A stretch of 58,127 nucleotides of DNA from Solirubrobacterales bacterium (GTDB taxonomy: Bacteria > Actinomycetota > Thermoleophilia > Solirubrobacterales > 70-9), in assembly GCA_049790835.1 (NCBI GenBank), contig JBAQZI010000147.1, forward strand, positions 1 through 58,127, written 5' to 3'. Shown piece by piece: positions 10,135 to 58,127 of this stretch; the first letter of the stretch is position 1, and the number at the start of each line of letters is the position of its first letter. The translations under genes and the position numbers were made by a program. The notes beneath the pieces are model-generated. The model was given only the letters and a program-made list of their open reading frames with translations. It did no database searches and had not been told where the DNA came from.

Positions 10135-10142
10135 CGACACTG

Positions 10143-10940
10143 TCAGCCTCCTATTGGCGCCCTCGGGTTGGCCCCCCAGAAGACAAGGGTCCCAAGCATC
10201 CCGATGATGTGGACTAAGACGATGTTGAGGACCATCGACTTGGCGGTCGCGGTCCCCACCCCAACCGGCCCCCCGGAGGCCGTGTAGCCGTAGTAGCAAC
10301 CGACCAGCACGATCGCCGTGGCCATGGTCATGCCCTTGATCAGGCTGAAGATCAGGTCGGGAGGGTTCTGGAACATCCAGAAGATCAGGAAGTAGCCGCC
10401 GGAGGAGACGTCGGCGATCTGTTTGACCACCGCCAGGTAGCTGGCCAGGTACATGATCCCGATCCCGGCCAGGTACATGAAGGGGAAGGTGATCCAGGCG
10501 GCGAGCAGCCGGGTGGCGCAGAGGAAGGTGATCGGCGGCACTCCCATCACCTCGAGCGCGTCGATCTCGTCGGAGATCCGCATCGCCCCGAGCTCGGCGA
10601 CGATCCCGGTCCCAACCTTGGCCGCCAGCATGTAGCCGAAGGCGTAGGGCATGATCTCGCGCAGGTCGCACCAGGCGGCGAAGACGCCCGCGTAGGCGGG
10701 AGCGCCCTGAGCACGCAGCAGGTAGGCCCCCTCGATCCCGCACTGCAGGCCGAGGGTGAAGACCAGGCCCCAGATGATCAGGGCCGAGCCGAGGATCAGG
10801 ATCCCGGCCTGGCGCAGGCTCTCGCCGAAGAAGCGCAGGACCCGTCCCGTGTAGACCTGGCCGGCGACCATCGAGCCGAAGCGGGCGATCTCCCCGAGCG
10901 AGTCGAGCCAGCCGCGCGGAACCGCAAGCCAGGGATTCAT
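10143..10940 (-). CDS. MlaE/YrbE-family ABC permease (YrbEB-like)
   Basis: Internal start MNPWLAV. The motif ELGAMRISDEIDALEVMGV is typical of MlaE/YrbE. ATGA overlap with the upstream gene. Confidence 0.8.
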   Translation of the reverse strand: MNPWLAVPRGWLDSLGEIARFGSMVAGQVYTGRVLRFFGESLRQAGILILGSALIIWGLVFTLGLQCGIEGAYLLRAQGAPAYAGVFAAWCDLREIMPYAFGYMLAAKVGTGIVAELGAMRISDEIDALEVMGVPPITFLCATRLLAAWITFPFMYLAGIGIMYLASYLAVVKQIADVSSGGYFLIFWMFQNPPDLIFSLIKGMTMATAIVLVGCYYGYTASGGPVGVGTATAKSMVLNIVLVHIIGMLGTLVFWGANPRAPIGG

Positions 10941-11743
10941 CGGATCGTCTGCAGCTCTGGGTTGGTGGCGAGCATGGTCTGGGTGAAGACGTAGTTGAAG
11001 GCGAAGACCCCCATGAAGGAGATGACGACGGCCTCGTTGACGGCGCGGCCGACACCGGCGGCGCCACCGGACGCAGTCATCCCTTTGTAGGAGCAGACGA
11101 CCGCGATCAGGGCCCCGAAGAGGGTGCACTTGATCACCGAGCCGGCGAGGTCGGTGATCGAGGCATTGGAGAAGAGGGTGGCGAAGAAGCCGCCGAGCGG
11201 CTGGTTGTAGAGCATCTCGGTGAGGATGCCGCCGCTGATCCCGAAGACCAGGGCGTAGATGTCGAGCAGGCCGGTGATCAGCATCAGCGCCAGGAAGCGC
11301 GGCACGACCAGGTTCTTGATCGGGTCGACGCCGAGCACCTGCAGGGCGTCGAGCTCCTCGCGGATCTTGCGTGCTCCCAGATCGGCAGTGATCGCGGTGC
11401 CGGCGACGCCGGCGACGACGACGGCGGTGACGAAGGGCGCGAACTCACGGATCGAGGCGAGCACGAAGAAGCCGCCGAGCCGGTCCAGCGCCCCGAACAG
11501 CGAGAGGAAGTTGGCCGCCTGCAGGCCGGGCGCGCCGAAGCCGAAGGCGACGGTCGAGACCAGCAGCGGGAACCAGCAGAGCTGCAGGGCGAAGAGGAAC
11601 TGGCCGATGAACTCCTCGCCGTATGGATACGGCGGCTTGACCGCGGACACGAGCGTACGCGCGGTGAGGATCATCATGTCCCCCACCACTTCGAACAGTG
11701 ACTTGGCGGGCAAGAATGCCCTGTTGACCGCGGATCCGACCAT
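10937..11743 (-). CDS. MlaE/YrbE-family ABC permease (YrbEA-like)
   Basis: DLGARKIREELDALQVLGVDP motif. ATG 11743 is preceded by GGAGGAG. The track start at 11821 would add a non-conserved extension. Confidence 0.8.
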   Translation of the reverse strand: MVGSAVNRAFLPAKSLFEVVGDMMILTARTLVSAVKPPYPYGEEFIGQFLFALQLCWFPLLVSTVAFGFGAPGLQAANFLSLFGALDRLGGFFVLASIREFAPFVTAVVVAGVAGTAITADLGARKIREELDALQVLGVDPIKNLVVPRFLALMLITGLLDIYALVFGISGGILTEMLYNQPLGGFFATLFSNASITDLAGSVIKCTLFGALIAVVCSYKGMTASGGAAGVGRAVNEAVVISFMGVFAFNYVFTQTMLATNPELQTIR

Positions 11744-32799: not shown

Positions 32800-32846
32800 T
32801 TGCGGCAGTCCTTTGGGCCGTATAGCGACCGAAAGGACTGCCGCAA
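32800..32846. promoter_or_regulatory. 47-nt hairpin TTGCGGCAGTCCTTT-N17-AAAGGACTGCCGCAA in the divergent intergenic region
   Basis: Perfect 15-nt arms (32800-32814 and 32832-32846), upstream of the cyclase GTG 32878. Confidence 0.6.
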
Positions 32847-32877
32847 CCCGGGAAAAGACCGGCGTAAGCTAGATCGG

Positions 32878-35800
32878 GTGAGTCCGACGACGAGGGACGA
32901 TGCCGAGCGCAAGCAGGTAACGGTGCTGTTCGCCGACGTCAGCGGCTCGATGGACCTGGCGGAGCAGCAGGACCCAGAGGAGTGGCGCAAGATCATGCAA
33001 CGCTTCTTCTCGATCCTGGCCGACGCCGTGGCCAAGTTCGAGGGCACCGTCGACAAGTTCACCGGCGACGGGATCATGGCCGTCTTCGGGGCGCCGATCG
33101 CCCACGAGGACCACGCGCGGCGCGCCTGCTACGCCGCCCTGCAGATGCTCGACGACGTCTCCGACTACGCGGCCGAGCTGCGGCGCGGGCCGGGGCTCAA
33201 CTTCTCCACCCGGATCGGGATCAACTCCGGCGAGGTGGTCGCCGGGGCGATCGGCGAGAAGCGCGAGGGCGACTACACGGCGATCGGCCACACCGTCGGC
33301 CTGGCGCAGCGGATGGAGGCGCTGGCCGAGCCCGGCAAGGCCTACGTGACCGAGCACACGGCCGAGCTCGCCGGCGGCTTCCTCGACCTCGATGACCTCG
33401 GCGAGTTCGAGATCAAAGGGGCGAGCCGCCCGGTCAGGGTCTTCGAGCTGGCCGGAGTCGGGCAGCCGCGCTCACGACTCGATCTCTCGCGCGAGCGCGG
33501 CTTCTCCAGCTTCGTCGGCCGGGCCGAGGAGGTGGCGGCCCTGAAAGCGGCACTCGACGACGCGCGGGCGGGCAAGGGCGGTGCCGTCGGCCTGGTGGCC
33601 GAACCGGGCGTCGGCAAGAGCCGGCTCTGCCTCGAGTTCACGCAGCGCTGCCGCGCGGAGGGGCTCGAGGTCCTCGAGGCGCAGGCGCAGGCGCACGGAA
33701 CGTCGATCCCCTTCATGCCGGTGCTGCAGATGCTGCGGGCCTTCTTCGGGATCGGCGAGCGCGACCCCGAGCAGCTGGCGCGGGAGAAGATCGCCGGCCG
33801 GTCGCTGCTGCTGGATCCCAGCTTTGCCGAGGACCTGCCGTTGCTTTTCGACTTCCTCGGCGTGCCCGACCCCGAGCGGCCGGTGGCGCAGATGAGCCCG
33901 GACGCGCGGCAGCGGGCGCTGGGGCGAGTCGTCTGCCGGCTCACCAACGCCCCCAGCCGCCGCAAGACGCTGGTCCTGCTGATCGAGGACCTGCACTGGA
34001 TCGACGAGGGCAGCAACGCGATGCTTTCCGACCTCGTCGACGCGATCGAGGGCACCAACACGCTGGCGGTGGTCAACTTCCGGCCCGAGTACACGCCGCC
34101 CTGGCAGAGCTCGAAGGCCTACCGCGAGCTCCCCCTCGAACCGCTCGGGCGCGAGGACACGCGCGACCTGCTCCGCGATTTGGCCGGCGAGGACCCATCC
34201 CTGGACGGCCTCGACGAGGCGATCCACGAACGCAGCCAGGGCAACCCGTTCTTCATCGAGGAGATCGTGCGAGAGCTCGACGAGGCCGGCTACCTCGAGG
34301 GCGAGCGCGGGGCCTACCGCCTGGCGCGACCGATCGAGGGCGCGCGGGTGCCGGTCACGGTGCAGGCCGTCCTCGCCGCCCGCATCGACCGTCTCGACCC
34401 GGCCGCGAAGCAGCTGCTGCAGGTCGCCTCGGTGGTCGGCAAGGAGATCAGCGGTCGGGCGCTGGGGATGACCGCCGGGCTCGACCGCGAGCGGATCGAC
34501 CCGGTGCTCTGCGAGCTGATCGAGGCGGGCTTCCTCTACGAAGCCGAGCTCTACCCGGAGCGGGTGCTCGCCTTCCGCCATCCGCTGACCCGCGAGGTCG
34601 CCTACGGCACCCAGCTCGCCGACGGCCGTTCGGCGACCCACGCGGCGGCGGCACGGGCGCTGATCGAGCTCGAACCCGACCGCCACGACGAGCTGGCGGC
34701 GCTGATCGCCCACCACATGGAGGAGGGCGGCGAAACCCTGGAAGCGGCGCGCTGGTCGGCGCGCGCCGCCTACTGGACCGGCAGCAGCCGGCCGGGCGAC
34801 GCGATGCGACTCTGGCGGCGGGTGATGGAGCTGAGCGCACGGCTCGAGCAGGACGAGGAGGCGACGGCGCTGGCGGTGATGTCGCGGCTGCTGCAGCTCG
34901 ACTTCGCCTGGCGCCTGGGAATGGACGGCGACGAGGAAGCTCGGCTGACCGCGGAGGCCGAGGAGATCGCGACGCGGACCGGCGACCTGCGCTCGCTGGC
35001 GCTGCTGCGGATGGCGACCTCGGCCAGGCCGGGGATGCCGCACCAGGGCGAGACCTGGCTCGCCGCGGTGGCAGAGACGAACCGCCTTGCCGACGAATCG
35101 GGTGACCTCCACCTGCGGATCGCGATCCGCGCGGCCGGCTCCTACGCGTACCTCTGCGTCGCCGACTTCGACGGCTTCGAACGGGCGCTGGACCAGGTGA
35201 TCGAGCTCTGCGGCAGCGACCGCCGCGCCGGGGCCGGGATCGTGATCGGCAACCCGCTCGCCTGGGCGATCATGGGCAAGGGCGTGGCCCGGCGCGAGCG
35301 TGGCAGGCTCGAGGAGGCCGAAGAGCTGTTCGACGCGGCATTGCGAATCGCCTCCGAGGAGGGGGATCCGGAGATCGAGAGCTGGACCCGCAGCAACCAG
35401 TCGCTGATGCTGGCAATGCGGGGCGACACCGAGGCGGGGATCGCCCTGGCGCGGCGCAACTGCGAGCTGACCGAACGCCTCGGCGACGTCTTCTCCCGCA
35501 GCCTCGCCCTCTCCAACGTCGGCGCCACGCAGCTCCTCGCCGGCGACCACGAGTCGGCGCTGGAATCGCTGCAGGAGTCGGAGCGGGTCTACCGGGCGGC
35601 GATCGACGGCGGCGACGAGATGGAGTGCTGGCGGGCGGCCCTGCGCGCCGAAGCACTGGCCGGGGTCGGTCGCGCCGAGGAGGCGCTCGACCTTGCCGCC
35701 TGGGCCGCCGACCTCGCCCGCGAGCGCGGCATGCTGTGGTCGCTGCCCCTGACGCTGCGCGCGCTCGCCCTCGCGCTCGACGCGAACGACCGCGAAGGCG

Positions 35801-35910
35801 CCCCCGAGGCGCTCGACGAGGGCGCGGCGGTTGCCGAGCGGACCGGGGCGATGACCAGCCTTGAGGGGATCGAGGCAACCCGGCAGCTGATCGGCGCCGG
35901 CGCCCGCTAG
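32878..35910 (+). CDS. class III adenylate/guanylate cyclase fused to a STAND/AAA ATPase and a TPR-like helical repeat domain
   Basis: VTVLFADVSGSM..FTGDGIMAVFGAP..GINSGEVVAG is the cyclase domain. Walker A EPGVGKSRL and LLIEDLHWID mark the NTPase. A helical repeat C-terminus of about 450 aa follows, with no LuxR HTH. Confidence 0.85.
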   Translation: MSPTTRDDAERKQVTVLFADVSGSMDLAEQQDPEEWRKIMQRFFSILADAVAKFEGTVDKFTGDGIMAVFGAPIAHEDHARRACYAALQMLDDVSDYAAELRRGPGLNFSTRIGINSGEVVAGAIGEKREGDYTAIGHTVGLAQRMEALAEPGKAYVTEHTAELAGGFLDLDDLGEFEIKGASRPVRVFELAGVGQPRSRLDLSRERGFSSFVGRAEEVAALKAALDDARAGKGGAVGLVAEPGVGKSRLCLEFTQRCRAEGLEVLEAQAQAHGTSIPFMPVLQMLRAFFGIGERDPEQLAREKIAGRSLLLDPSFAEDLPLLFDFLGVPDPERPVAQMSPDARQRALGRVVCRLTNAPSRRKTLVLLIEDLHWIDEGSNAMLSDLVDAIEGTNTLAVVNFRPEYTPPWQSSKAYRELPLEPLGREDTRDLLRDLAGEDPSLDGLDEAIHERSQGNPFFIEEIVRELDEAGYLEGERGAYRLARPIEGARVPVTVQAVLAARIDRLDPAAKQLLQVASVVGKEISGRALGMTAGLDRERIDPVLCELIEAGFLYEAELYPERVLAFRHPLTREVAYGTQLADGRSATHAAAARALIELEPDRHDELAALIAHHMEEGGETLEAARWSARAAYWTGSSRPGDAMRLWRRVMELSARLEQDEEATALAVMSRLLQLDFAWRLGMDGDEEARLTAEAEEIATRTGDLRSLALLRMATSARPGMPHQGETWLAAVAETNRLADESGDLHLRIAIRAAGSYAYLCVADFDGFERALDQVIELCGSDRRAGAGIVIGNPLAWAIMGKGVARRERGRLEEAEELFDAALRIASEEGDPEIESWTRSNQSLMLAMRGDTEAGIALARRNCELTERLGDVFSRSLALSNVGATQLLAGDHESALESLQESERVYRAAIDGGDEMECWRAALRAEALAGVGRAEEALDLAAWAADLARERGMLWSLPLTLRALALALDANDREGAPEALDEGAAVAERTGAMTSLEGIEATRQLIGAGAR

Positions 35911-36650
35911 CGCCGGCTGTCGCGCTGGCGCTCGAGCTCGGCCACCATCAGCTTGGTGTGCAGCGCCGCGATCAGGTCCTTGAGCGGCTGGGCTCCGGCT
36001 TCGAGCATCTCGACCACGCGCTCGGGCGAGACCTCGCCGGCCAGCCGGGTCATCACCATGTCGACCTCCTGGTGGACCAGGGCCTCGAGCGCCTCCTTGT
36101 AACGCAGGGTGTCGTAGACGGTGAAGCCGATCTGCTCGTCGTAGCCACCGGCGCGGAAGCGGCTGATCGCCTCGATGATGGTGACGTCGGAAGGCGAGTA
36201 GCCGCGGCTGTTCGGGGTCAGGATCTCCAGCTCGGCGAGGCGGTCGAGGGCCTCCTGGGGGACGCCGTAGCGCTTGCGTACCTCGCTGGCGCTGGTTCGC
36301 GAACGTTCGCCGGCCAACGCGCGGTCGAGGATGCGGTCCTCCAGCTCGAGCAGTGCCCTGGCTCGCTCCGGGTCCTCGTCGAGCACCGACTTGATCGCCT
36401 TCAGCGGCATGAAGCGCTCCTCCTGCAGGCGCTTGATCAGCTTGATCCGGTCGATGAACTCGGGTGGGTAATAGGCCATGTTGCGGCTGGTCTTGACCGG
36501 CTCCGGCAGCAGCCCCTCGCGCAGGTAATGCTTGATCGTCGGCGCCGGCACCCCAGACGCCTCGGCCAGCTCCCCCATCCGCAGCAGCTCCTGGGGTCGA
36601 TGGGCCGAAATGTCGACCCTGGCTGGACTTATCGGCCCGTCGGCGGTCAT
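35907..36650 (-). CDS. MerR-family transcriptional regulator (last gene of the acyl-CoA operon)
   Basis: LLRMGELAEASGVPAPTIKHYLREGLLP is a MerR HTH. The N-terminal 24 aa preceding it are largely encoded by a 51-nt palindromic repeat. ATGA overlap with the CoA-transferase stop. Confidence 0.8.
   Translation of the reverse strand: MTADGPISPARVDISAHRPQELLRMGELAEASGVPAPTIKHYLREGLLPEPVKTSRNMAYYPPEFIDRIKLIKRLQEERFMPLKAIKSVLDEDPERARALLELEDRILDRALAGERSRTSASEVRKRYGVPQEALDRLAELEILTPNSRGYSPSDVTIIEAISRFRAGGYDEQIGFTVYDTLRYKEALEALVHQEVDMVMTRLAGEVSPERVVEMLEAGAQPLKDLIAALHTKLMVAELERQRDSRR
36595..36645. repeat. 51-nt nested palindromic repeat, copy 2
   Basis: GGTCGATGGGCCG AAATGTCGACCCTGGCTGGACTTAT CGGCCCGTCGGCG. 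Same length, arms and inner ATGTCG..CGAC core as the copies at 509 and 51525. Confidence 0.8.
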
Positions 36651-37909
36651 GCGCGGAACTCGGTTGGCTTGGCGCCCGACTGGGGGCCGGCGGCGGCGCC
36701 GGAGGCGAGCATCGCTTCGATCTCCGCGGGCGCGTAGCCGGCCTCGCGCAGGACCTCCTCGGTGTGCTCGCCGAGGGCGGGCGCCGGACGGGTCGGGTCG
36801 GCGGGAGTGCGGCTGAGCTTGACCGGGGCGCCGAGCTGGCGCACCGTGCCCAGCTCCGGCTGCTCGATCTCCACCACCATCTCACGCGCCCGCACCAGCT
36901 CCGAGTCGAGTGCCTCGTCGAGGTCGAGAACCGGCTCGATGCAGCAGTCGTGCTCGTCGTTGAAGGCGAGCCACTCGGCGCGCGTGCGGGAGCGGAAGAC
37001 GTCGGCGACATCGCGCCAGGCATCGGAGCCCGGCGGCTCGAACTGCTTCTCGATCAGGTCCGGCCTCCCCACCCCATTACAGAGAGCAGCCCAGAACTTC
37101 GGCTCCAGGGCGCCACAGCTGACCCAGCCGTCGGCGACTTCATAAGGGAGGTAGCAGAGCAGCCCGCCGGCCAACTGCTGCTCGCCGCGCTTCGGCACCT
37201 CGCCGTCGCAGAAGTAGCGGCCAGCGACCATCGCCAGCCAGGAGAGGGCGCCGTCGGCCATCGAGACGTCGACCATCTGGCCCTCGCCGGAGCGGCGGCG
37301 CTCGTGCAGCGCCGCCATCACCCCGAAGGCTGCCATCAGGGCGCCGCCGCCGAGGTCGGCGATCTGGCCGGCCGACTGCACCGGCGGCCCGTCCTTGGCC
37401 CCGGTCAGCCCCAGCAGCCCGACCAGGCCGAGGTAGTTCATGTCGTGCCCGGCGCGCTGCGCGTAGGGACCGTCCTGGCCGTAGCCGGTGATCGCGCAGA
37501 AGACGATCGCCGGGTTCGCCTCGCGCATGCGCTCGTAGCCAACCCCAAGCCGGTCGAGGACGCCGGGGCGGAAGCCGTCGAGGACGACGTCGTGGCGCTC
37601 GACCAGGCGCAGCAGCGCCTCCCTCCCGGCCTCGCCCTTGAGGTCGAGGCGGACCGAGCGCTTGCCGCGGTTGAGCGCCAGGTAGAGCGAGGAGCGGGTG
37701 CCGAGCGCCTGCTGCTCGTCGCTGCCGTAGTACGGCGGCGCCCAGCGGATGTAGTCGCCCATGCCGGTGTCCTCGACCTTCAGTACCTCGGCGCCGAGGT
37801 CGGCCAAGAGCAGCGAGCAGAAGCCGCCCGGCAAGAGCCGGGTCAGGTCGAGGACCTTGACGTCGCTAAGCGGGAGGCTGGCCCCGGGCTGGGGTCGCTT
37901 GGCACTCAT
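36647..37909 (-). CDS. family III CoA-transferase (CaiB/BaiF/alpha-methylacyl-CoA racemase family)
   Basis: LSDVKVLDLTRLLPGGFCSLLLADLGAEVLKVE and GHDMNY. Internal ATG 37909 overlaps the OsmC stop (ATGA). Confidence 0.85.
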   Translation of the reverse strand: MSAKRPQPGASLPLSDVKVLDLTRLLPGGFCSLLLADLGAEVLKVEDTGMGDYIRWAPPYYGSDEQQALGTRSSLYLALNRGKRSVRLDLKGEAGREALLRLVERHDVVLDGFRPGVLDRLGVGYERMREANPAIVFCAITGYGQDGPYAQRAGHDMNYLGLVGLLGLTGAKDGPPVQSAGQIADLGGGALMAAFGVMAALHERRRSGEGQMVDVSMADGALSWLAMVAGRYFCDGEVPKRGEQQLAGGLLCYLPYEVADGWVSCGALEPKFWAALCNGVGRPDLIEKQFEPPGSDAWRDVADVFRSRTRAEWLAFNDEHDCCIEPVLDLDEALDSELVRAREMVVEIEQPELGTVRQLGAPVKLSRTPADPTRPAPALGEHTEEVLREAGYAPAEIEAMLASGAAAGPQSGAKPTEFRA

Positions 37910-49285: not shown

Positions 49286-50209
49286 ATGTCACCCGCGATG
49301 AAGGTTCAGGTGGAGGCACGGCCCCTGCACGAGCCGCTCGCCGGGGGTACCCCGGGGGCGACTGTCGTCGTCGAACCGATGATCTCCGGCCACAGCGATT
49401 TCCCGGTGCCGATGATGGAGAGCCCGGGCGGGCGCTTCCTCACCATGAAGCTGCTGCGCGCATTGCTCAGCGGCAAACCGGCGCGGACGATCCCGATTCC
49501 CGCCTTCCTCATCCGCCACCCCAGCGCCGGTGCCATCCTGGTCGACACCGGCCTGCACCCGTCGATCGCCACCGATGGCCGCGAGAACTTCGGCCGGCTG
49601 GGCGAGCGCTTCGGCAAACCGCAGCTGCAGGTCGGCGAAGACGTCCCGGCGCAGCTGCGCAAGCGCGGCCTCGATCCAGGTGAGATCCCGGTCGTCGTGA
49701 TGACCCATATGCACAGCGATCACACCTCGGCGATCTCGGAGTTCTCGAAGTCGACCTTCGTCGTCAGCGAGACCGAGTGGAAGGCGGCCGCGACCGGGTC
49801 GCGCCCCACCCTCAACGGCTACAGGCGCCAGCACTTCGACTACGCCTTCGACTACCGCACCGTCGACTTCGACCGCGCCGGAATCGATTCCTACGCCAGC
49901 TTCGGCCGCACCTTCGACCTCTTCGGCGACGGCTCGATCCACCTCGCCTTCACCCCCGGCCACAGTGCCGGCCACATGTCGGTGATCTGCCGGCTCGAGC
50001 AGGACGACTTCGTGATCGGCGGCGACGCGATGTACGTGCTGGCCCAGTTGACCGGGGATGCGCCGCTGCCGCCACGGCCCTTCGACGCCCACAACTTTCG
50101 CCGCTCACTGCAGGAGCTGCGGCTCTTCCGCTCTCAGTTCCCCAACGCCACGATCACGCCGGGGCACGATCCCGAGTTCTACGCCCGCCTCGCTGCTCGC
50201 TACGAGTAG
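49286..50209 (+). CDS. MBL-fold metallo-hydrolase (lactonase-like)
   Basis: THMHSDH motif and TPGHSAGH. Start is ATG 49286 (or 49298). Confidence 0.8.
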   Translation: MSPAMKVQVEARPLHEPLAGGTPGATVVVEPMISGHSDFPVPMMESPGGRFLTMKLLRALLSGKPARTIPIPAFLIRHPSAGAILVDTGLHPSIATDGRENFGRLGERFGKPQLQVGEDVPAQLRKRGLDPGEIPVVVMTHMHSDHTSAISEFSKSTFVVSETEWKAAATGSRPTLNGYRRQHFDYAFDYRTVDFDRAGIDSYASFGRTFDLFGDGSIHLAFTPGHSAGHMSVICRLEQDDFVIGGDAMYVLAQLTGDAPLPPRPFDAHNFRRSLQELRLFRSQFPNATITPGHDPEFYARLAARYE

Positions 50210-50897
50210 CGATCCCCTCGTACATCTCCCGTACCACGGCGAAGACTTCGGTCGCGACCTCGAGCTGGCGCTCGCGGTTCGGCGCCGGCTCGACCGCGAA
50301 GGTCAGCGGCCTGCCGAACTCGACGGTGACCTTGGGGAACTGCAGTCGCTTCCAGCCGCGCACCCGGGCCGAGCCGTGGATCGCCACCGGCACGATCGAA
50401 GCCCCCGACTCCAGCGCGATCCGCCCGATCCCAGGTTTCGGTTCCCCCAGCTCCTGCGAGCGCGAGCGGCCGCCCTCGGCGTAGACCAACAGCATTTCCC
50501 CTTGGGCGAGCAGCTGATAGGCGGTCTCGAAGGCCTCCTCGTCGTGCTGACCACGGCGCACCGGGAAGACGCCGCCGTGCTTGTAGATGTAGGTGAGGAC
50601 GGGCGGGCCGAACATCTGCGATTTGGCCATGAAGCGAATCTTCCGCCGCAGGTAGACGCCGGCGAAGAAGTGATCCATCTGGCTGAAGTGGTTCGGGGCG
50701 AGGACCAGAGCCCCCTGGCGCGGCACGTTCTCGAGCCCGATCGCCCGGACCCGGTAGATCAGCAGCGTCGGCAGGGTGAGGACGATGCGGGCGAAGGCGT
50801 AGGTCCAGCCCACCCCCTTGCGGGCGGCCGTGTGGAACCGCGTGAAGTACTCCGCCGGGCGCGGATCCTTATAGGTCTGCGGCTTCATCTCTGCCAT
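50154..50897 (-). CDS. plsC: 1-acyl-sn-glycerol-3-phosphate acyltransferase (lysophospholipid acyltransferase)
   Basis: NHFSQMD (H-x4-D) and the YAEGGRS motif. Confidence 0.8.
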   Translation of the reverse strand: MAEMKPQTYKDPRPAEYFTRFHTAARKGVGWTYAFARIVLTLPTLLIYRVRAIGLENVPRQGALVLAPNHFSQMDHFFAGVYLRRKIRFMAKSQMFGPPVLTYIYKHGGVFPVRRGQHDEEAFETAYQLLAQGEMLLVYAEGGRSRSQELGEPKPGIGRIALESGASIVPVAIHGSARVRGWKRLQFPKVTVEFGRPLTFAVEPAPNRERQLEVATEVFAVVREMYEGIATRSEQRGGRRTRDRAPA

Positions 50898-50906
50898 GCA
50901 GAGACG

Positions 50907-52421
50907 CTACGCCGCAGGCCGTGCCCAGTTACGCGAGCGCTCCAGGGCGCGGCGCCAGTCGGCCAGCAGGCCCTCGCGCTCATCGGCGCCCATCCGTGGC
51001 TCATACCGCGTCGCCTCGCGCCACATCTCCCCCACCTGCTCGCGGGTCCAGCAGCCGGTCGCGATCCCGGCCAGGTAGGCGGCGCCCAGCGCGGTCGTCT
51101 CGGCGATCTCCGGCACCACCACGACGGCGTCGAGCACGTCGGCCTGGAATTGCATCAGCCAGCGGTTGGCGACGGCGGCGCCGTCGGCCTTCAGGACGTC
51201 CAGCCGCGCCCCGGCCGCGGCCTCCTGGGCGCGCACCGCGTCGACGGTCTCATACGCGATCGCCTCCAGCGCCGCCCGGGCCAGGTGGGCGCGGCCGCTG
51301 CCGCGGGTGAGGCCGAGGATCGTGCCGCGCGCGTAGGGATCCCAGTGCGGGGAGCCGAGACCAGTCAGCGCGGGGACGAAGTAGACGCCGTCGTTGGAAT
51401 CCAGCGAGGCGGCCAGCGCCTCCGTCTCCCCCGCCTCGTCGACGATCCCGAGCCCGTCGCGCAACCACTGCACGGCGGCGCCGGTGACGAAGATCGACGC
51501 CTCGAGCGCGTAGGTCACCTCCGCGGCCGACGGGCCGGAATGTCGAGCCTGAAGCGACATATCGGCCCGTCGGCCGGTGGTTGGGAGGCCCCAGGCGACG
51601 GTGGCTAGGAGGCCGTCGGGGGGGCGCGGGGCCTGGGCGCCGGTGTTGAGGAGGACGAAGCTGCCGGTGCCGTAGGTGTTCTTGGCCATGCCGGGGCTGT
51701 GACAGGCCTGGCCGAAGAGGGCGGCCTGCTGGTCGCCGGCGATTCCCGCCACCGGCACCTCGCCGCCGAACTCGCTCGTCGTCCCGTAGACATGCGCCGA
51801 GGGCAGCGGCTCCGGCAGCCGCGCCGGGTCGACTCCGAGCAGCTCGCACAGCTCCGGGTCCCACTCGAGCCGGCGGATGTCGAACAGCATCGTCCGCGAG
51901 GCGTTGGAGTAGTCGGTGACGTGACGGCCGGTCAGCTTGAAGAGCAGCCAGGCGTCGATCGTGCCGAAGACCGCCCGCTCCGCGCCCTCGGCGTTGCCCA
52001 GCAGCCACTCGATCTTGGTCGCCGAGAAGTAGGGGTCGATGGTGAGGCCGGTCCGCTCGCGCACCAGCGCCTCCTGCCCGGCCGCCCGCAGCTCGTCGCA
52101 GCGCTCGGCGGTGCGACGGTCCTGCCAGACCAGGGCGCGGTGGACCGGCTCGCCCGTCGCCCGGTCCCAGGCGACCACGGTCTCGCGCTGGTTGGTGATC
52201 CCGATCCCGTCGAGCTCGCCGCCCTCGATGCCGGCGGCGGCGATCGCCGCGGCCGCGACCCGCCGCGTCACCTCCCAGATTTCGGCGGCGTCGTGCTCGA
52301 CCCAGCCCGGCCGCGGGAAATGCTGCTCGAACTCGGCGTAGGCGCGACCGGCGACCCGCGCCTCGCCATCGAAGACGAGGCAGGTGGTGCCGGTGGTCCC
52401 CTGGTCGATCGCGAGGATCAC
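50907..52421 (-). CDS. glpK: glycerol kinase (carries a 17-aa in-frame insertion)
   Basis: ILAIDQGTTGT, GITNQRET, IAGDQQAALFGQ and MAKNTYGTG. Collinear with E. coli GlpK except for GRRADMSLQARHSGPSA between AWGLPTT and AEVTYALE. Confidence 0.95.
   Translation of the reverse strand: MILAIDQGTTGTTCLVFDGEARVAGRAYAEFEQHFPRPGWVEHDAAEIWEVTRRVAAAAIAAAGIEGGELDGIGITNQRETVVAWDRATGEPVHRALVWQDRRTAERCDELRAAGQEALVRERTGLTIDPYFSATKIEWLLGNAEGAERAVFGTIDAWLLFKLTGRHVTDYSNASRTMLFDIRRLEWDPELCELLGVDPARLPEPLPSAHVYGTTSEFGGEVPVAGIAGDQQAALFGQACHSPGMAKNTYGTGSFVLLNTGAQAPRPPDGLLATVAWGLPTTGRRADMSLQARHSGPSAAEVTYALEASIFVTGAAVQWLRDGLGIVDEAGETEALAASLDSNDGVYFVPALTGLGSPHWDPYARGTILGLTRGSGRAHLARAALEAIAYETVDAVRAQEAAAGARLDVLKADGAAVANRWLMQFQADVLDAVVVVPEIAETTALGAAYLAGIATGCWTREQVGEMWREATRYEPRMGADEREGLLADWRRALERSRNWARPAA
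51525..51575. repeat. 51-nt nested palindromic repeat, copy 3, in frame inside glpK
   Basis: GGCCGACGGGCCG GAATGTCGAGCCTGAAGCGACATAT CGGCCCGTCGGCC. It has perfect 13-nt outer arms and inner 6-nt arms ATGTCG/CGACAT. It starts on a codon boundary and spans exactly 17 codons. Confidence 0.9.
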
Positions 52422-52447
52422 GCGGGCGTCAACTCTCTGTTGCCCGC

Positions 52448-53239
52448 TCAGCCGCCCCGGACCCTGCAGCTGCGGGTCAGGGTCGAGGAGAGGGTGCGGC
52501 CGTCGGCGAAGGTCATCGAGGCGTTGGCGAAGGGGAAGGTGGCGCCGGGGAAGCCCGCGGGGGCGTCGCAGGCGGCGCTGAGGTAACTGCGACGCTGGCC
52601 CCTGTAGGTGAAATTGCGGTGCAGGCTGAGGCTGATGCGCCTCAGGTAGCCCCAGCGGTTGGCCGAGGCCGGCAGGGCGCCGGAGAGGATCGTCCCGTAG
52701 GTGCCGCGGCTTTCCTGGACGTGGAAGACGACGATGCGGGTGATCGGGATCGGATTCTCGCCATAGACGTGGGCGAGGATGGCGCGCTTGCCGCCGACCA
52801 CCGCGTTGAAGGCGAGCACGCGGCCATGCGAGGGAAAGGCCGACTGTTCGGGGAAGGCGACGTCGGCGTCGTAGCTGCCGCCGCCGACCAGAGCCTGGCC
52901 GCAGCGGGCGAGGGCTTCCTCGGTCGAAGACGGTTCGATCTGGCGCCGACCGCAGGTAGGCAGCCCGCGCGCGTCGAGCCGCCCGCCCTGGTTGATCGCA
53001 ATCTCGATCCGGCGCAGCGCCGGCGGCCGCTCTCCCGACAGAGTCCGGACCGTGCCGGCAACCTGAACCGTGATCGGCGCCCGCACATCCCGCGGCAGGG
53101 CGTCAGGGGTGATGCCGCCGCTGAACTTGACGAAGAGGTCGCCGCGCGCGATCAGCTCGGCCTGGGCGAGCGAAGCGGCCAAGGCGAAGACCAGGGCCAC
53201 GATGACCAGCACCCCGATCTTTCCGCTTCCTCCCGTCAT
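52448..53239 (-). CDS. secreted 4-Cys beta-rich protein, paralogue A (uncharacterised family)
   Basis: Signal peptide ending AQA. About 40% identical over its full length to the product of 55758..56537, with shared GLPTC, AAPAGFPGA.FPFA.AS and a C-terminal R.C.V. Confidence 0.65.
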   Translation of the reverse strand: MTGGSGKIGVLVIVALVFALAASLAQAELIARGDLFVKFSGGITPDALPRDVRAPITVQVAGTVRTLSGERPPALRRIEIAINQGGRLDARGLPTCGRRQIEPSSTEEALARCGQALVGGGSYDADVAFPEQSAFPSHGRVLAFNAVVGGKRAILAHVYGENPIPITRIVVFHVQESRGTYGTILSGALPASANRWGYLRRISLSLHRNFTYRGQRRSYLSAACDAPAGFPGATFPFANASMTFADGRTLSSTLTRSCRVRGG

Positions 53240-53276
53240 CCCCGGCTGAGGCTAGCGGAGGCCGCATGGCTCGCCG

Positions 53277-53966
53277 CTAGGAGGTCGCTTCGGCCACTCG
53301 GCGGGCCTCCTCGATACCGACGTACGGCATCAGGACGAGCTGAACCAGCTGCGGCCCGATCTCAACCAGCTGATCCACCTGACCGGAAAGCAGGCGCGTG
53401 CCGATCGTCGACGTCGTGGCGCCGATCAGCGCCCGCTCGGTCAGCTCCGGGAGCGCGGCTGCCCGCGGGCACTGTTCCCGTCCGTTCCGCAGCAGGCCGA
53501 CGAAATAGTCGTTGGAGGCGAGCACCCGCAACGCCAGCATCGGGTCCGCGGCGACCGCGTCCACGACCAGCAGCTGCGCCTCCTCCGGCCCCCGCACCGC
53601 GAAGTGGATGGCCGCGCCGATCCCGGCCGCGAGCTTCGCAGTCCACTCCGACTCCCCGGCGCAGGCGTGGAGCAACTCGCCGGCAAGGCGGTCGAATGCC
53701 GCCTCGTGGGCAACAAGCACGCAGTCGCGTTTGTTCTCGAAGTGTTGGTAGAAGGTGGCCCGGGAGATTCCGGCCTCGCCCAGCACATGCGCGACCGTCA
53801 TCTGGGCGTAGCCGTGCCTGGCGAGCGCTCCTGCCGCTCCCGCCAGCAGCCGCTGACGCTGGTGGGCGGCCACGACCTTCTGCGACAGCTTGTGGGGCCC
53901 GCGGGGAAGCCGCCAGTCGCCTTCGCGCTCGGAGGGGCCTTCGGCGGACAACGACCCCGGGCTCAC
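53277..53966 (-). CDS. TetR-family transcriptional regulator
   Basis: RLLAGAAGALARHGYAQMTVAHVLGEAGISRATFYQHFENK. Confidence 0.8.
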   Translation of the reverse strand: MSPGSLSAEGPSEREGDWRLPRGPHKLSQKVVAAHQRQRLLAGAAGALARHGYAQMTVAHVLGEAGISRATFYQHFENKRDCVLVAHEAAFDRLAGELLHACAGESEWTAKLAAGIGAAIHFAVRGPEEAQLLVVDAVAADPMLALRVLASNDYFVGLLRNGREQCPRAAALPELTERALIGATTSTIGTRLLSGQVDQLVEIGPQLVQLVLMPYVGIEEARRVAEATS

Positions 53967-54123
53967 GCCGCTCCTCCCCGCTGCCGGAGAGTGGGCGGGC
54001 CGGGCGCCGGAGATGGGACGTCCCCGGCGCCCTGCATTCGCCGTTTGGCCATGGCGTCGTCCCAGGGAATAAGACGACAGCCAGCTTTTTCGCGTCCCTT
54101 GCCCATGGCGCTTTGGTCCCTCT

Positions 54124-54158
54124 TGTAAACGGCAGTACAGAATGTAAGCGCTGGTACA
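54124..54158. promoter_or_regulatory. two tandem operator-like boxes TGTA-N8-TACA
   Basis: TGTAAACGGCAGTACA (54124-54139) and TGTAAGCGCTGGTACA (54143-54158), in a lower-GC stretch between two divergent TetR-type genes. Confidence 0.45.
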
Positions 54159-54268
54159 CCATTTGTCAAGCAGGGCTCCCGTTGGAATTTCTCACCGGCG
54201 ATGGGTAAAGTCTTCCGTCCTGGCAATGTGGATCGGCCGCGGGCGGGGGCGCCTGAAAGGCTGGAGAG

Positions 54269-54910
54269 ATGGAGCGAGCCGAAAGGCCCGTGATCGCAAG
54301 CAGTGAACGGGATCACCTGTTCCACGTAGTGCTGCTCGAGCTGGGACGAGGCGGGTCTGGTGCCCTCTCAATTGCCGATGTCCTCCCCGCTGCCGGCATC
54401 TCGCAGGCGGCGTTCGAGGCAGAATTCGAAGACCTCGACAGCTGCCTGTTCGCGGCCTTCGACCAGCTGACCGAGAAGCTGGCCAAAGCGGCGGGAACCG
54501 GCTGCGACATCGACGGCGAGTGGCGAGAACGGGTCCAGGCCGGCCTGGAGGCACTGCTGGAAGAGCTCGCGGCGCAGCCGGACATGGCCCGGGCGCTGAC
54601 CTGCTCCTTCCCGGCGATCGGACCCGCTGCGCAGCTGCGATACACGGAGCTCCTGGAATCCTTCACGCCGCTGCTGCGCGGGGGCCGGGCACTGTCCGCC
54701 GTGAAAAGCGAGCCGCCGGGGGAACTCGAGATGCTCGCGATCGGCGCCGCCGAGGCGATCGTCCGCGAGGAGATTCAGGCGGGCCGGGCGGCTCAGCTGC
54801 CCGCGATGTCGGCGACGATCCTCTTCGCGCTGCTAGCCCCGTTCCTGGGGGTCGAGCACGTCCTGGCCACGGTCACGGGTGAGACCGGGCCCCGCGGGGG
54901 CGGATCCTAG
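54269..54910 (+). CDS. TetR-like regulator (divergent, degenerate HTH)
   Basis: LLELGRGGSGALSIADVLPAAGISQAAFEAEFEDLDSC resembles a TetR N-terminal domain, followed by a helical C-terminus. RBS GGAGAG. Confidence 0.55.
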   Translation: MERAERPVIASSERDHLFHVVLLELGRGGSGALSIADVLPAAGISQAAFEAEFEDLDSCLFAAFDQLTEKLAKAAGTGCDIDGEWRERVQAGLEALLEELAAQPDMARALTCSFPAIGPAAQLRYTELLESFTPLLRGGRALSAVKSEPPGELEMLAIGAAEAIVREEIQAGRAAQLPAMSATILFALLAPFLGVEHVLATVTGETGPRGGGS

Positions 54911-55039
54911 ACCGGCCCGCACCACCCGCGCAAAGGCAGCCCTCGGGAGCAAAGCAAGCCGCCGCTGCCTGCGAGTCCCCGGTCCGCAGAGCGGCGGTGC
55001 AGCGTTCGATTGCCCCCTCGGGCTCCTCGCCGGCCATCC

Positions 55040-55717
55040 TCAGCGATAAAGCTCCACATAGAAGGGGGCGTCGACCGGAGCCAACGCCGCTTCGGGGGTT
55101 GCTTTGAGGGTCCAGGTCGAGACCTGGACCGCCGGGTAGGGGCAGCTGGCGGTGCCGCCGACCGCGAGTTGGGCGATCGCGGGTTCGCTGGTGCCATGGA
55201 CGCTGACCTGACCCCCGCGTGGGACGAAGGCGGGCACGCTGAGGCAGTAGACGCCTTTGACCGGGTGGGCGACGTTGGGGCTGTTGAGGCCCTTGGAGTT
55301 TCCTGCATCGACGCCGCCGCCGAGGTTGACCCGGGCGAAGACCACGGGGTTGGCCGAGTTGGCCGACGGCACCTCCGAGAGGGTCGACTCGTTGACTTTG
55401 TCGCCGGTCACGGCGTCGCCCGCGAGCTTCGCGGTGCCCACCGAGCCGTCGGCGAGGCTGGCGGCGCCGACCGCGCCGACGCCGAGCTTGGCGGCGGTCA
55501 CCGCGGCGTCCCTCAGCTTCGAGGTGTCGACCGCTCTGTTCTTGATTTTGGCCGTGGTCACGGCGCTGGCCTTGATCTGGGTGGTGCCGATCTTCTTGGT
55601 CTGATGCTTGTTGGTCTGCTTCTTTGCCGCATAGGCGCTGGCGCCTCCCAGCAACAGGAAGACCGCCAGGCTCGACATCACGTTGGCGTAGGTGAGGTGG
55701 GTGCGGATCTGCTTCAT
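55040..55717 (-). CDS. secreted protein with six decapeptide repeats (AVT-x-AKL-type) and a C-terminal beta domain
   Basis: Internal start MKQIRTHLTYANVMSSLAVFLLLGGASAYA after GAGGAG. Repeats are AVTTAKIKNR, AVDTSKLRDA, AVTAAKLGVG, AVGAASLADG, SVGTAKLAGD and AVTGDKVNES. Confidence 0.65.
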   Translation of the reverse strand: MKQIRTHLTYANVMSSLAVFLLLGGASAYAAKKQTNKHQTKKIGTTQIKASAVTTAKIKNRAVDTSKLRDAAVTAAKLGVGAVGAASLADGSVGTAKLAGDAVTGDKVNESTLSEVPSANSANPVVFARVNLGGGVDAGNSKGLNSPNVAHPVKGVYCLSVPAFVPRGGQVSVHGTSEPAIAQLAVGGTASCPYPAVQVSTWTLKATPEAALAPVDAPFYVELYR

Positions 55718-55757
55718 CGGAATCTCCTCGGGGTTGAGAGGTGGATCGGGAGCGCCA

Positions 55758-56537
55758 TCAGTCGGCCACCTTGCAGTGGCGGTTGATCTTGGTCGTGACG
55801 ACGTCGCCGGTGCTGAACTCATATGAGGCTTTGGCGAAGGGGAAGAGGGCTCCGGGGAACCCGGCCGGCGCCGCGCAGGAGGCCGAGACGAAGGAGCGCT
55901 GCTTGCCGCGGTAGGTGTAGGTGCGGCCGAGGGTCATGTCGAACTGGGTCAGGTAGGCCCAGCCTTCGGCGTAGTCGGGCAGCGTGGTTTCGATCACGTT
56001 GCCGTAGAGGCCCTTGCTGCGGTTGACCGTGAAGGTGAGGACGATCGCCCCGGGCGGGTTCTTGGAGTAGATCTGGGCCAAGATCAGCTTCTTGCCGTCC
56101 TTGCGGGGGCCGTTGAAGGCGAGCAGGTTGTTGCGCGAGATGTAGTCGCTTTGGGAGGGCAGCCGCACGACCAGGGTGACGTGGCCCGAGCCGACGATCG
56201 AGCTCGCGCAGCGCTTCTTGGCCACCGCTTCGGTCGCCGGCTGGATCGAGGCGACCCGGCAGGTCGGCAGGCCCTTGTCATAGAGACGGCCGGAGCGGTT
56301 GATCGCGACCGCGATCGTGCGCAGCTGCGGCAGCCGCAGGCCGTTGCTCGTTTTGACGTTGCCGGCGACGCGGACTGAGACCGGCACCGGCTTGGCCCGG
56401 GGCAGCTCGCTGGGGCTGATCTCGCCCTGGAAGGAGACGATCAGGTCCCCCTTGCGGTTGAGCTCGGCCTGGGCCAGGGCGGCGAGGGCCCCCAGCCCCA
56501 GCGCCGCCAGCAGGCAGAGCTTCAGGACCCGGCCCAT
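55758..56537 (-). CDS. secreted 4-Cys beta-rich protein, paralogue B
   Basis: Internal start MGRVLKLCLLAALGLGALAALAQA. Paralogous to 52448..53239. TGATG overlap with the upstream gene. Confidence 0.65.
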   Translation of the reverse strand: MGRVLKLCLLAALGLGALAALAQAELNRKGDLIVSFQGEISPSELPRAKPVPVSVRVAGNVKTSNGLRLPQLRTIAVAINRSGRLYDKGLPTCRVASIQPATEAVAKKRCASSIVGSGHVTLVVRLPSQSDYISRNNLLAFNGPRKDGKKLILAQIYSKNPPGAIVLTFTVNRSKGLYGNVIETTLPDYAEGWAYLTQFDMTLGRTYTYRGKQRSFVSASCAAPAGFPGALFPFAKASYEFSTGDVVTTKINRHCKVAD

Positions 56538-57031
56538 CAGCTGAACTTCGAGGGGTCGATCCGGCAGTGCTTGAAGTCGAGCGCCAAGATCGCGTTGTTG
56601 GCGAGGTTGGAGTTGCGGTTCAGCTTCACCGAGAGGTTCTGGGCCTTGTACTTGTCCCCGGCGGCGAGGGCGGCGCCGATCTTGTGGAAGTAGCGCTGCT
56701 CGCTGCCCAGCAGCCCGATCCAGCGGGTCAGCTTGGCCGCGTCGGCGGCCGGCAGCGGCACCGCCTCGATCTGCCTGATCGTCTTGGCGAGCGCGGTGGC
56801 GGCGCGGAAGAAGTGCTTGGAGCCCTTCTTCAGCTCGCCCGCCTTGACCTCCGCCTTGGCGCCCTTGAAGATCCGCGAGTTGGCCTCGACGTTGGTCTTG
56901 CAGATCGGCTCGACCCGGGCGATGTATTCCTCGCGGGTGGTTTCCGCGGCGCCGGCGAGGGGTGCGGCGAGCGCCAGGCAAAGGGCCAGCGCCCCGATCG
57001 TTCCCAGCCATCTCGATTTGTCCCATCTCAT
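56537..57031 (-). CDS. secreted helical protein with 2 Cys (uncharacterised)
   Basis: Signal peptide ALALCLALAAPLAGAAE. GGGAGG RBS. Lies 37 nt downstream of the MMPL gene. Confidence 0.6.
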   Translation of the reverse strand: MRWDKSRWLGTIGALALCLALAAPLAGAAETTREEYIARVEPICKTNVEANSRIFKGAKAEVKAGELKKGSKHFFRAATALAKTIRQIEAVPLPAADAAKLTRWIGLLGSEQRYFHKIGAALAAGDKYKAQNLSVKLNRNSNLANNAILALDFKHCRIDPSKFS

Positions 57032-57068
57032 GCGAACCTCCCTGTTTGTCCTTGGTTGTGAAACACGG

Positions 57069-58127
57069 CTACGCGGGGTGAAGAGCGACTTTCGGCAGCG
57101 CCCTGGCCAGCGGCTTGGGCAGCCACCAGACGCGCTCGCCGATCAAGAGCATCAGCGCCGGCAAGAGCAGGATCCGCACCACCGTGGCGTCGAGGGCGAC
57201 CGCGACGGCGAGGCCGACGCCGAGCTGGGAGACGGTGGATATAGGCGCCGCCGCGAAGACGACGAAGACGGCCATCATGATCGCCGCGGCACCGGTGATC
57301 ACCCGCGCGGTCTTCTCGAGCCCGAAGGAGATCGCCGCCTCGTGGTCGCCGGTCTCGTCGTAGGCCTCGCGCATCCGCGCGAGGAGGAAGACGGCGTAGT
57401 CGACCGAGAGCCCGAAGACGATCCCGAAGATCCCCGCGGCGCCGATCGCATCGACGTAGTCGTGGCCCCCGAGCGGCCAGCCGGCGGGGACGTTGAAGAG
57501 GAGGACGAGGACGCCGAAGGCGACGCCGACCGTCATCAGGTTGAGGAGGACGGCCAGAGCGGCGAGGATCACCGCCCGCAGCAAGAAGACGAGGGCGAGG
57601 AAGGTGACCACGGTCATCGCCGCGATCACCAGCGGCACCCTGCTCCTCGTCACCTGGTTGTAGTCGGTCAGTTCGGCGGCGCCGCCGGCGAGGCCGACCC
57701 GCAGCCCGGTCTTGGCCCCGAAGCGCTCGGCGAGGTGGCCGAGGCGGTGGTAGACGGCTTCGGAGCCCTCGGTGTTGAAGGTGTAGCGGGGGACGACGAG
57801 GATGCTGGCGGCCTGGCCGCCGCGGTCGAGGTCGATCGCCTGGGCGGCGCGGGCGCGCGGGCCCGGCTCGGCGCCGTCGAGAGCCGAGAGGACGAAGTAG
57901 CCGGAGTCAAAGAGGTGCGGGGAGGCGGCCTCGAGCTGGGTGCGCTGGCGGGCCAGGCCCGAGGCCTGGGCGGAGATCTTGACCCCGGCCGCGCCCAGCC
58001 GCGACTGCAGGGGCTCAGAGCGGGCATAGCCCTCCGACAGGCCCGAGGCCAGCGCTTGGCTGCCGCCCTGCAGGCGGGTCAGCCCGGCGGCGAGGGCGGC
58101 CGAGCCGCCGGCCAGGCGCCCCAGCCC
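57069..58127 (-). CDS. MMPL-family transporter, C-terminal part (5' end outside the window)
   Basis: The frame is open to the window edge by my own translation (...AELTDYNQVTRSRVPLVIAAM...). The C-terminal TM bundle has GLSVDYAVFLLARMRE, typical of MMPL. Confidence 0.8.
   Translation of the reverse strand, partial: GLGRLAGGSAALAAGLTRLQGGSQALASGLSEGYARSEPLQSRLGAAGVKISAQASGLARQRTQLEAASPHLFDSGYFVLSALDGAEPGPRARAAQAIDLDRGGQAASILVVPRYTFNTEGSEAVYHRLGHLAERFGAKTGLRVGLAGGAAELTDYNQVTRSRVPLVIAAMTVVTFLALVFLLRAVILAALAVLLNLMTVGVAFGVLVLLFNVPAGWPLGGHDYVDAIGAAGIFGIVFGLSVDYAVFLLARMREAYDETGDHEAAISFGLEKTARVITGAAAIMMAVFVVFAAAPISTVSQLGVGLAVAVALDATVVRILLLPALMLLIGERVWWLPKPLARALPKVALHPA

Follow-up and report, generated by a model that had tools for sequence, protein, structure and literature searches.

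Within contig JBAQZI010000147.1 of assembly GCA_049790835.1, analysed here over positions 1 to 58,127 (the window), a gene for an MMPL-family resistance-nodulation-division (RND) transporter is followed on the minus strand by genes for two exported proteins, p164 and p259, named, like the others below, for their lengths in residues. The order MMPL→p164→p259 is the conserved core of a gene cluster in related genomes, and p164 and p259 are tentatively regarded as extracytoplasmic accessory subunits, specific to the lineage, of an MmpL exporter with a presumed coiled coil. On this view, an envelope gene cluster conserved in the Solirubrobacterales (Thermoleophilia, Actinomycetota) would have its downstream half in the window, with a core made up of an MmpL-type RND exporter carrying a heptad-insertion stalk and of two translationally coupled, Sec-exported proteins that would be stabilised by disulfides. 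An MmpL exporter with accessory proteins is a kind of system already known; new are the families involved, which are absent from Pfam, NCBIfam and the PDB, two of them having been modelled without a solved fold being found. The source is an uncultured Solirubrobacterales actinobacterium of soil or sediment. The G+C content of the window is ~69%, the exact sequence is present in one sediment metagenome run, and none of the sequencing runs listed as containing the region is an RNA run.

Comparison set and gene prediction

Gene starts were set using the open reading frame (ORF) listing, the lengths of homologues, and alignments. A scan for relatives with one genome per species returned 256, from which 79 loci were kept, and look-ups of encoding contigs supplied 3 further loci, giving 82 related loci in total (referred to by L numbers). 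These come from metagenome-assembled genomes (MAGs) of Solirubrobacterales, Conexibacteraceae, or Thermoleophilia, or from MAGs labelled only Actinomycetes, Actinomycetota, or 'uncultured bacterium'. The six-frame ORFs of 83 sequences were searched using hidden Markov models (HMMs) for the families of p164, p259, and p225 (f164, f259, and f225) and using phmmer for MMPL, TetR, GlpK, and PlsC, which identified 110 copies of f259, 47 of f164, 16 of f225, and 40 of MMPL. Average-linkage clustering of 107 f259 domains separated three large clades, each found in a distinct gene context.

The seven genes at 52448-58127 were confirmed, as a preliminary description of this DNA had given them, by the ORF listing and by homologue alignments; among them, curated thresholds were passed only by the transporter and by the regulator TetR1. 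No match was obtained for p164, p259, or p263 in Pfam, NCBIfam, or PHROG scans, nor for p225 in Pfam or NCBIfam scans, and searches of the PDB by sequence and profile with alignment A1 (p259), alignment A2 (p164), p225, and the large secreted protein BIG described below gave chance-level hits only. The earlier statement that none of the four exported proteins is recognisable as a known family is upheld by Pfam, NCBIfam, PDB sequence, and Foldseek searches, with the repeat region of p225, which matches phage tail-fibre families, as the part for which it fails.

The conserved MMPL-p164-p259 core

The transporter gene (57069..>58127, minus strand) is followed on the same strand by p164 (56537..57031), p259 (55758..56537), and p225 (55040..55717). 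The junctions reported previously are exact: 37 nt between MMPL and p164, a 1-nt overlap (TGATG) between p164 and p259, and 40 nt between p259 and p225. The MGRV start of p259 is backed by homologues of 259-262 aa, and the MKQIR start of p225 by homologues of 203-240 aa.

In the clade of f259 to which p259 belongs (n=36), an f164 gene lies directly upstream in 35 members and an MMPL gene within 800 bp in 28. Seen from the other side, 43 of the 47 f164 copies adjoin an f259 gene and 35 adjoin MMPL. The distance from the f164 stop to the f259 start was -4 to +4 nt in 25 of the 31 pairs evaluated, which indicates that translational coupling of the two genes is conserved. Second, diverged MMPL/f164/f259 sets were found in the genomes of L006, L008, L009, and L032, and the order in L078 is f225-f259-f259-f164-MMPL; that the same families re-associate in different arrangements argues for a functional unit. 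The linkage to MMPL proposed in the preliminary description thus stands for p164 and p259, and it does not extend to p263, whose clade is attached to another gene (see below).

In L081 (11462-16545), the order MMPL-p164-p259-p225 is followed by beta-oxidation genes (3-hydroxyacyl-CoA dehydrogenase, thiolase, and acyl-CoA dehydrogenases), which replace the glpK-plsC pair.

The transporter

Coiled-coil-stalk MmpL transporters are known mainly from mycobacteria. The protein of the window is an MMPL-family RND transporter, represented by its C-terminal 352 aa (Pfam MMPL, PF03176, E 8.9e-31, 107.5 bits against a cut-off of 20.5). This fragment starts with ~100 aa of xxxLxxG-type heptad repeats from the second extracytoplasmic domain and continues into the second MMPL membrane domain; it is cut off at the window edge, and the MMPL promoter lies beyond. 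The MMPL/MmpL3 domain models of NCBIfam match, and the heptad repeat model TIGR03057 matches weakly (E 0.073). The full-length orthologue in L080 has 999 aa with two MMPL domains (210 bits in 2 stretches) and a second extracytoplasmic loop of ~440 aa, of which ~260 aa are Ala/Gly/Leu-rich and heptad-like; the insertion is presumably a coiled coil. No further copies of the f164, f259, or f225 families and no second MMPL of the same type were found elsewhere in the window. The other MMPL gene of the window (6549-9152, minus strand) encodes an MMPL/HAE3-like protein of 867 aa with a weak sterol-sensing-domain match and a second loop of only ~185 aa, and an ABC ATPase gene adjoins it (9124-11067).

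The closest known counterparts are the mycobacterial cluster I MmpLs (MmpL4/5), exporters of siderophores and drugs, which carry a coiled-coil insertion of ~196 aa that is essential and has been modelled as a trimeric 13-nm tube (PMC9042941, PMC11850643, PMC12501195). They need MmpS (MmpS4/5), whose Ig-like domain has been proposed to stabilise the stalk, and also, for siderophore secretion, the secreted protein Rv0455c, a helical bundle in which an essential disulfide between near-terminal Cys residues acts as a 'cinch' (PMC9042941, PMC11850643, PMC12501195). The carriers that take the substrate beyond the mycobacterial MmpL stalk are still unidentified (PMC12501195). MmpL4 and MmpL5 resemble the transporter type of the window in being RND proteins of ~1,000 aa with a long heptad insertion in the second extracytoplasmic domain, and they depend on small extracytoplasmic accessory proteins encoded nearby, a role for which p164 and p259 are proposed, by analogy, as counterparts. 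The two systems differ in that MmpS (PF05423) is missing here: p164, p259, and p225 gave no Pfam match to it at E <= 1, and the genes called upstream of MMPL in L080 and L081 include none of this kind. The accessory genes lie downstream instead, and their products are read as soluble secreted proteins, not as a transmembrane anchor with an Ig-like domain. The host differs as well, being non-mycolate and presumably monoderm.

The secreted proteins p164 and p259

The preliminary description had classed p164, p259, and p225 as Sec-signal proteins and had counted p263 among the secreted proteins. A Sec signal was borne out for p164, p259, and p263, which have ordinary A-x-A signal peptides, and not for p225, which is probably membrane-anchored. 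Mean column identity was lower at the N-terminus than in the rest of the protein for p164 (0.46 against 0.77) and p259 (0.51 against 0.74); such variable N-termini fit cleaved signal peptides, and p164, p259, and p263 are read as cleaved and released. A lipoprotein reading was considered and rejected, as the signal-peptide Cys is not conserved in alignments A1 and A2.

The AlphaFold2 (AF2) model of p164 has four long helices, with a predicted local distance difference test score (pLDDT) of 86.3, exceeding 90 over most of the bundle (aa 31-150), and a predicted template modelling score (pTM) of 0.75. Two Cys residues are invariant in alignment A2, C44 in helix 1 and C156 in the C-terminal tail. 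Foldseek searches with this model returned only generic or designed four-helix bundles, 4HB sensor domains, and cytochrome b562/c', all at E >= 0.1. The model of p259 is all-beta (pLDDT 80.7, pTM 0.76), and its best Foldseek hits in the PDB and BFVD had E values of 8e-3 and 1e-2 with template modelling (TM) scores <= 0.37, which do not constitute a match; neither of the two proteins thus corresponds to a known fold. The four Cys residues of p259 (C93, C110, C221, and C255), said earlier to stand at positions conserved between the paralogues p259 and p263, were found to be invariant in 30 close relatives; among 100 diverse members of the family, 97-100 have them. The alignment likewise confirms GLPTC and APAGFPGA.FPFA as genuine, conserved motifs. 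The paralogy itself was confirmed, at an identity somewhat above the 'about 40%' first estimated (45% over 230 aa, BLASTP E 2e-70).

In architecture, p164 is comparable with Rv0455c/MSMEG_3494 (DUF5078; PDB 7REF), the 'periplasmic cinched protein'. Both are Sec-exported and all-helical (164 aa for p164, 148 aa for Rv0455c), both have two conserved Cys residues near the start and the end of the mature chain, and both are associated with an MmpL of the coiled-coil type, presumed for the one here. They differ in helix number, four long helices in p164 against nine in 7REF, and in that the p164 gene directly follows the transporter gene and is coupled to p259. No Pfam hit of p164 to DUF5078 was obtained at E <= 1, the PDB profile search with A2 did not retrieve 7REF, and 7REF was not among the top 50 Foldseek matches listed. 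With all homology tests against DUF5078/7REF negative, p164 does not belong to that family; any resemblance would be a convergence of p164 on the 'cinched helical bundle' architecture of Rv0455c.

We infer that p164 and p259 associate with the transporter, that they take part in export, and that their conserved Cys residues form disulfides. C44 and C156 of p164 could tie the ends of the chain together in a 'cinch'-like manner. Both proteins might dock on the porter domain or the stalk of the exporter and, once docked, might stabilise it or take over the exported amphiphile as it crosses the wall. Their role would parallel that of MmpS and Rv0455c for MmpL4/5, from unrelated families. For the beta module of p259, this would be a stabilising or hand-over role comparable to that of the MmpS Ig-like domain, though p259 has neither an anchor nor the MmpS signature.

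The wider f259 family

The homologues of p259 number 1,003, every one labelled hypothetical, and a deep search of the family gave 1,812 representative clusters. Many of these are fusions of 450-1,000 aa in which the module lies C-terminal to NHL/SBBP propellers, InlB-B-repeat (Flg_new_2) domains, or Big_13 domains. Clade C of the family (n=24) has BIG upstream in 12 cases, an NHL propeller fusion in 5, and ftsE downstream in 5. In L047 (6804-8699) and L060 (6717-8699), and also in L058 and L064, NHL/SBBP propellers carry a p259-type module C-terminally, and their genes immediately precede ftsE-ftsX-ctpA(S41)-rnr-smpB; this hints at a link between one clade of the family and the cell-division and wall-hydrolase machinery.

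BIG is a secreted protein of ~1,000-1,100 aa encoded directly upstream of f259 genes or of MMPL. Examples are found at L080 3063-6416 (1117 aa), at L067 4785-7949, and in L056, L074, and others; the gene is outside the window and would be expected past position 58127. There were 45-46 ORF matches in the 83 sequences, and BIG stands upstream of MMPL on the same strand in 14 loci. The protein has a signal peptide, a Lys-rich C-terminal tail, and 16 conserved Cys residues. Its internal repeats are most simply explained as four modules (hhalign self-comparison, E ~2e-25), each with two Cys pairs spaced as in p259. It has no Pfam or PHROG match, and the copy tested had no PDB sequence hit. A direct search of the BIG proteins with the f259 profile HMM found nothing, and hhalign of the shallow alignment A1 against BIG gave E values of 0.05-0.3, shallower comparisons not being significant. 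When a diverse f259 alignment was compared with the four BIG modules merged, hhalign gave an E value of 3.2e-5 (probability 73%) over 202 colinear columns with the four Cys residues in register, and because of this merged-module comparison p259 and p263 are probably single-module relatives of BIG.

Upstream of BIG in L080 (1-3066) is a gene for a 1,942-aa protein with only faint fn3 and PD40 matches, weak relatives of which occur upstream in ~14 other loci; this protein, too, may be a large surface protein belonging to the cluster.

The repeat protein p225

The protein p225 consists of a probable N-terminal membrane anchor, a Lys-rich linker, decapeptide repeats, and a C-terminal domain of ~100 aa with two conserved Cys residues (alignment A3). 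The repeats noticed previously were recovered as 6-7 units at about aa 47-116, and Tandem Repeats Finder detected a 30-nt period. In PHROG, the segment aa 42-121 matched the tail-fibre families phrog_892 (E 2.5e-14) and phrog_28766 (6e-10), and six further families beyond phrog_892 matched at E < 1e-6. Alignment of p225 homologues shows indels of exactly 10 or 20 residues. These indels and the PHROG matches together indicate that the decapeptide repeat is real and of a known fibrous type.

Likeness to the phage decapeptide families (phrog_892, phrog_28766) is confined to the repeat region, aa 42-121. Unlike phage tail-fibre proteins, p225 is a chromosomal protein of 225 aa with an N-terminal anchor, a 2-Cys C-terminal domain of its own, and conserved synteny of a non-phage kind. 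A prophage origin was considered and rejected on account of this conserved chromosomal synteny.

In p225, conservation is higher at the N-terminus than elsewhere (mean column identity 0.81 against 0.69), and this conserved, hydrophobic N-terminus is the reason why p225 is read as probably membrane-anchored and not released. Only 8 of the 36 genes of the p259 clade are followed by an f225 gene. We regard p225 as a putative optional component of the cluster, a membrane-anchored fibre that would probably be trimeric.

Accessory subunits or surface proteins

Several observations weigh against an accessory role for p164 and p259. The f259 family is not confined to MMPL contexts: 67 of its 110 copies have no f164 neighbour, and in its other clades the gene comes after that for the large four-module protein, encodes a fusion to an NHL beta-propeller and stands upstream of ftsEX, or comes before glpK. 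Because the family extends beyond MMPL contexts in this way, the f259 domain may be a general envelope module. The similarity of p164 to Rv0455c/DUF5078 is below detection, so that the analogy is one of architecture, and the physical link of p164 and p259 to MmpL is one that we infer. Finally, the related loci were chosen by similarity to p259, and the linkage counts of the p259 clade are inflated for that reason.

Of the alternatives, the one that withstands the data best, although we think it rather doubtful, is that p259, p263, BIG, the NHL fusions, p225, and p164 are structural parts of a lineage-specific surface layer or wall scaffold, with MMPL a mere neighbour in an 'envelope island' or a supplier of lipid anchors. 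The main argument for it is the modularity of the f259 family, in which the module is carried C-terminally on NHL/SBBP propellers with InlB-B-repeat (Flg_new_2) and Big_13 domains and is probably present four times in secreted proteins of ~1,000-1,100 aa with Lys-rich tails. The position of clade C copies next to ftsE-ftsX-ctpA, the great expansion of the family to 110 copies in 83 sequences, and the fibre-type repeats of p225 point in the same direction. This explanation does not account well for the p259 clade, which almost invariably follows MMPL-f164, with conserved stop/start coupling and with the triad duplicated as a unit; such close tracking of one transporter paralogue would be unexpected for a pure coat protein.

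A wider form of the accessory-subunit reading, which we consider unlikely, is that in non-mycolate actinobacteria a trimeric coiled-coil MmpL pump is extended across the wall by p164, the 4-Cys beta module (in p259 and BIG), and the anchored fibre p225, which would together make up a new class of RND accessory proteins with a fold that has no solved relative.

If p164 and p259 do serve the exporter, a non-mycolate, deep-branching actinobacterial order would pair the coiled-coil MmpL type with secreted partners different from those of mycobacteria, and the two proteins would be candidate partners for structural work on MmpL export machines. Three families absent from Pfam and NCBIfam, with hundreds to thousands of members, are defined here, including a modular 4-Cys domain without a PDB or BFVD match. 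The finding would be less important if the proteins were ordinary surface proteins, and the organisms are uncultured, with no attached phenotype. The observation made in the preliminary description was confirmed overall, and its interpretation as a regulated, MMPL-dependent cell-surface or lipid-handling system was supported in part.

p263 and the glpK-plsC genes

The p263 gene (52448..53239, minus strand) is followed on the same strand, after 26 nt, by a gene for glycerol kinase of the FGGY family (50907..52421, an ORF whose L080 orthologue has FGGY_N and FGGY_C) and then by one for a PlsC-type acyltransferase (50154..50897, minus strand; PF01553 Acyltransferase in the L080 orthologue). In the p263 clade (n=23), the gene is directly upstream of glpK in 21 cases, and a TetR gene is upstream in only 5. 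The f259-glpK gap has an approximate median of 22 nt over 22 pairs, glpK is followed by plsC in 24 of 24 cases, and the GlpK orthologues of 24 loci are 81-89% identical. By this gene order, p263 is the first gene of a p263→glpK→plsC operon and belongs to a clade separate from that of p259.

The glpK-linked and the MMPL-linked f259 clades are usually at different sites in the genome. In L080, the closest long relative (p259 85% identical), the order is BIG (1117 aa)-MMPL (999 aa)-p164-p259-p225-p263-glpK-plsC on one strand without TetR genes, and the arrangement in L004 is the same; in both, the array from MMPL to plsC has short gaps and p225 is joined directly to p263. L001 lacks both the TetR pair and p263.

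As a guess, the default one for MMPL transporters, the substrate of the exporter is a lipid, and the neighbouring glpK-plsC genes are a weak hint that it might be a glycerolipid. An improbable extension of this idea is that p259 and p263 are soluble carriers that move glycerolipids, made by GlpK/PlsC and transported by MmpL, across the wall in the manner of LprG and LppX, the mycobacterial extracytoplasmic lipoproteins that carry lipids together with MmpL transporters (PMC9042941). Like these, p259 and p263 are extracytoplasmic, mainly beta, and ~230 aa long, 21 of 23 cases keep the order p263→glpK→plsC, the L080 and L004 arrays unite all the genes concerned, and MMPL members are typically lipid exporters (PMC11850643). 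Unlike LprG and LppX, however, p259 and p263 lack a lipobox, a Cys in their signal peptides not being conserved, and they have two conserved Cys pairs; Foldseek with p259 gave no LolA-, LppX-, or LprG-type match (TM <= 0.37), and the two clades usually lie apart in the genome.

The TetR genes

TetR1 (53277..53966, minus strand) precedes the co-oriented p263 by 37 nt and is a TetR-family regulator (TetR_N, PF00440, E 2.3e-10, 40.5 bits against a cut-off of 24). Only L033, L037, and L072 have a TetR1 orthologue (~70% identity) immediately before the p263 orthologue. TetR2 (54269..54910, plus strand) is divergently oriented and remained below the cut-offs (TetR_N 11.3 bits against 24, E 0.31; NCBIfam BetI E 1.3e-4). 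Its overall homology to TetR1 (27-30% identity over ~195 aa, E ~1e-17) identifies it as a divergent member of the family with a degenerate helix-turn-helix (HTH) signature. No TetR2 orthologue with >32% identity was present in the 82 related loci. In its recognition-helix motif (…SQAAFEAEFEDLD…), acidic residues take the place of the usual aromatic or basic ones, and TetR2 may no longer bind DNA.

The preliminary description had included twin TetR regulators in the system. This did not hold: L080, L004, and L001 have the cassette without them, and the TetR pair is specific to its lineage and does not belong to what is conserved in the cluster. A consensus scan of 50,000-58,127 found a single candidate sigma-70-like promoter, TTGACA-17-TACATT (54141..54169, minus strand), against 0.2 expected, and it faces TetR1-p263-glpK-plsC. 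It is in an AT-richer island (54100-54200) of the TetR1/TetR2 divergent intergenic region, where the imperfect palindrome TGTAAGCGCTGGTACA overlaps the promoter spacer; the palindrome is a possible TetR operator. Apart from this promoter-like site, scanning the intergenic regions for inverted repeats and terminators yielded nothing above background. Since the p263-glpK-plsC unit is preceded by TetR1 in this genome, it is probably under TetR1 control, and judging from gene order and the direction of the candidate promoter, the pair most plausibly controls this unit and not the MMPL genes.

That the TetR pair instead senses a ligand and regulates MMPL and its secreted partners as one efflux unit is very improbable: TetR genes do adjoin 16 of the 110 f259 copies, one precedes MMPL in L081, and the divergent region has its promoter-like site with the overlapping palindrome, but the pair is missing in the closest relatives with an otherwise identical cassette (L080, L004, and L001), no locus has an orthologue of TetR2, whose HTH match is below the threshold, the single promoter-like site is directed away from the MMPL genes, and the MMPL promoter is outside the window.

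Other genes in the window

A 774-aa fusion of a GT4 glycosyltransferase with LPG_synthase_TM (an MprF-like flippase), and thus another envelope-lipid gene, is encoded at 22058-24382 on the minus strand. At 32800-35910 on the plus strand is a gene for a large signalling protein of 1,036 aa, an adenylate/guanylate cyclase with AAA_16 ATPase and TPR domains. The cyclase gene is overlapped by a 1,183-aa ORF at 33472-37023 on the minus strand, which had no Pfam hit and is probably spurious.

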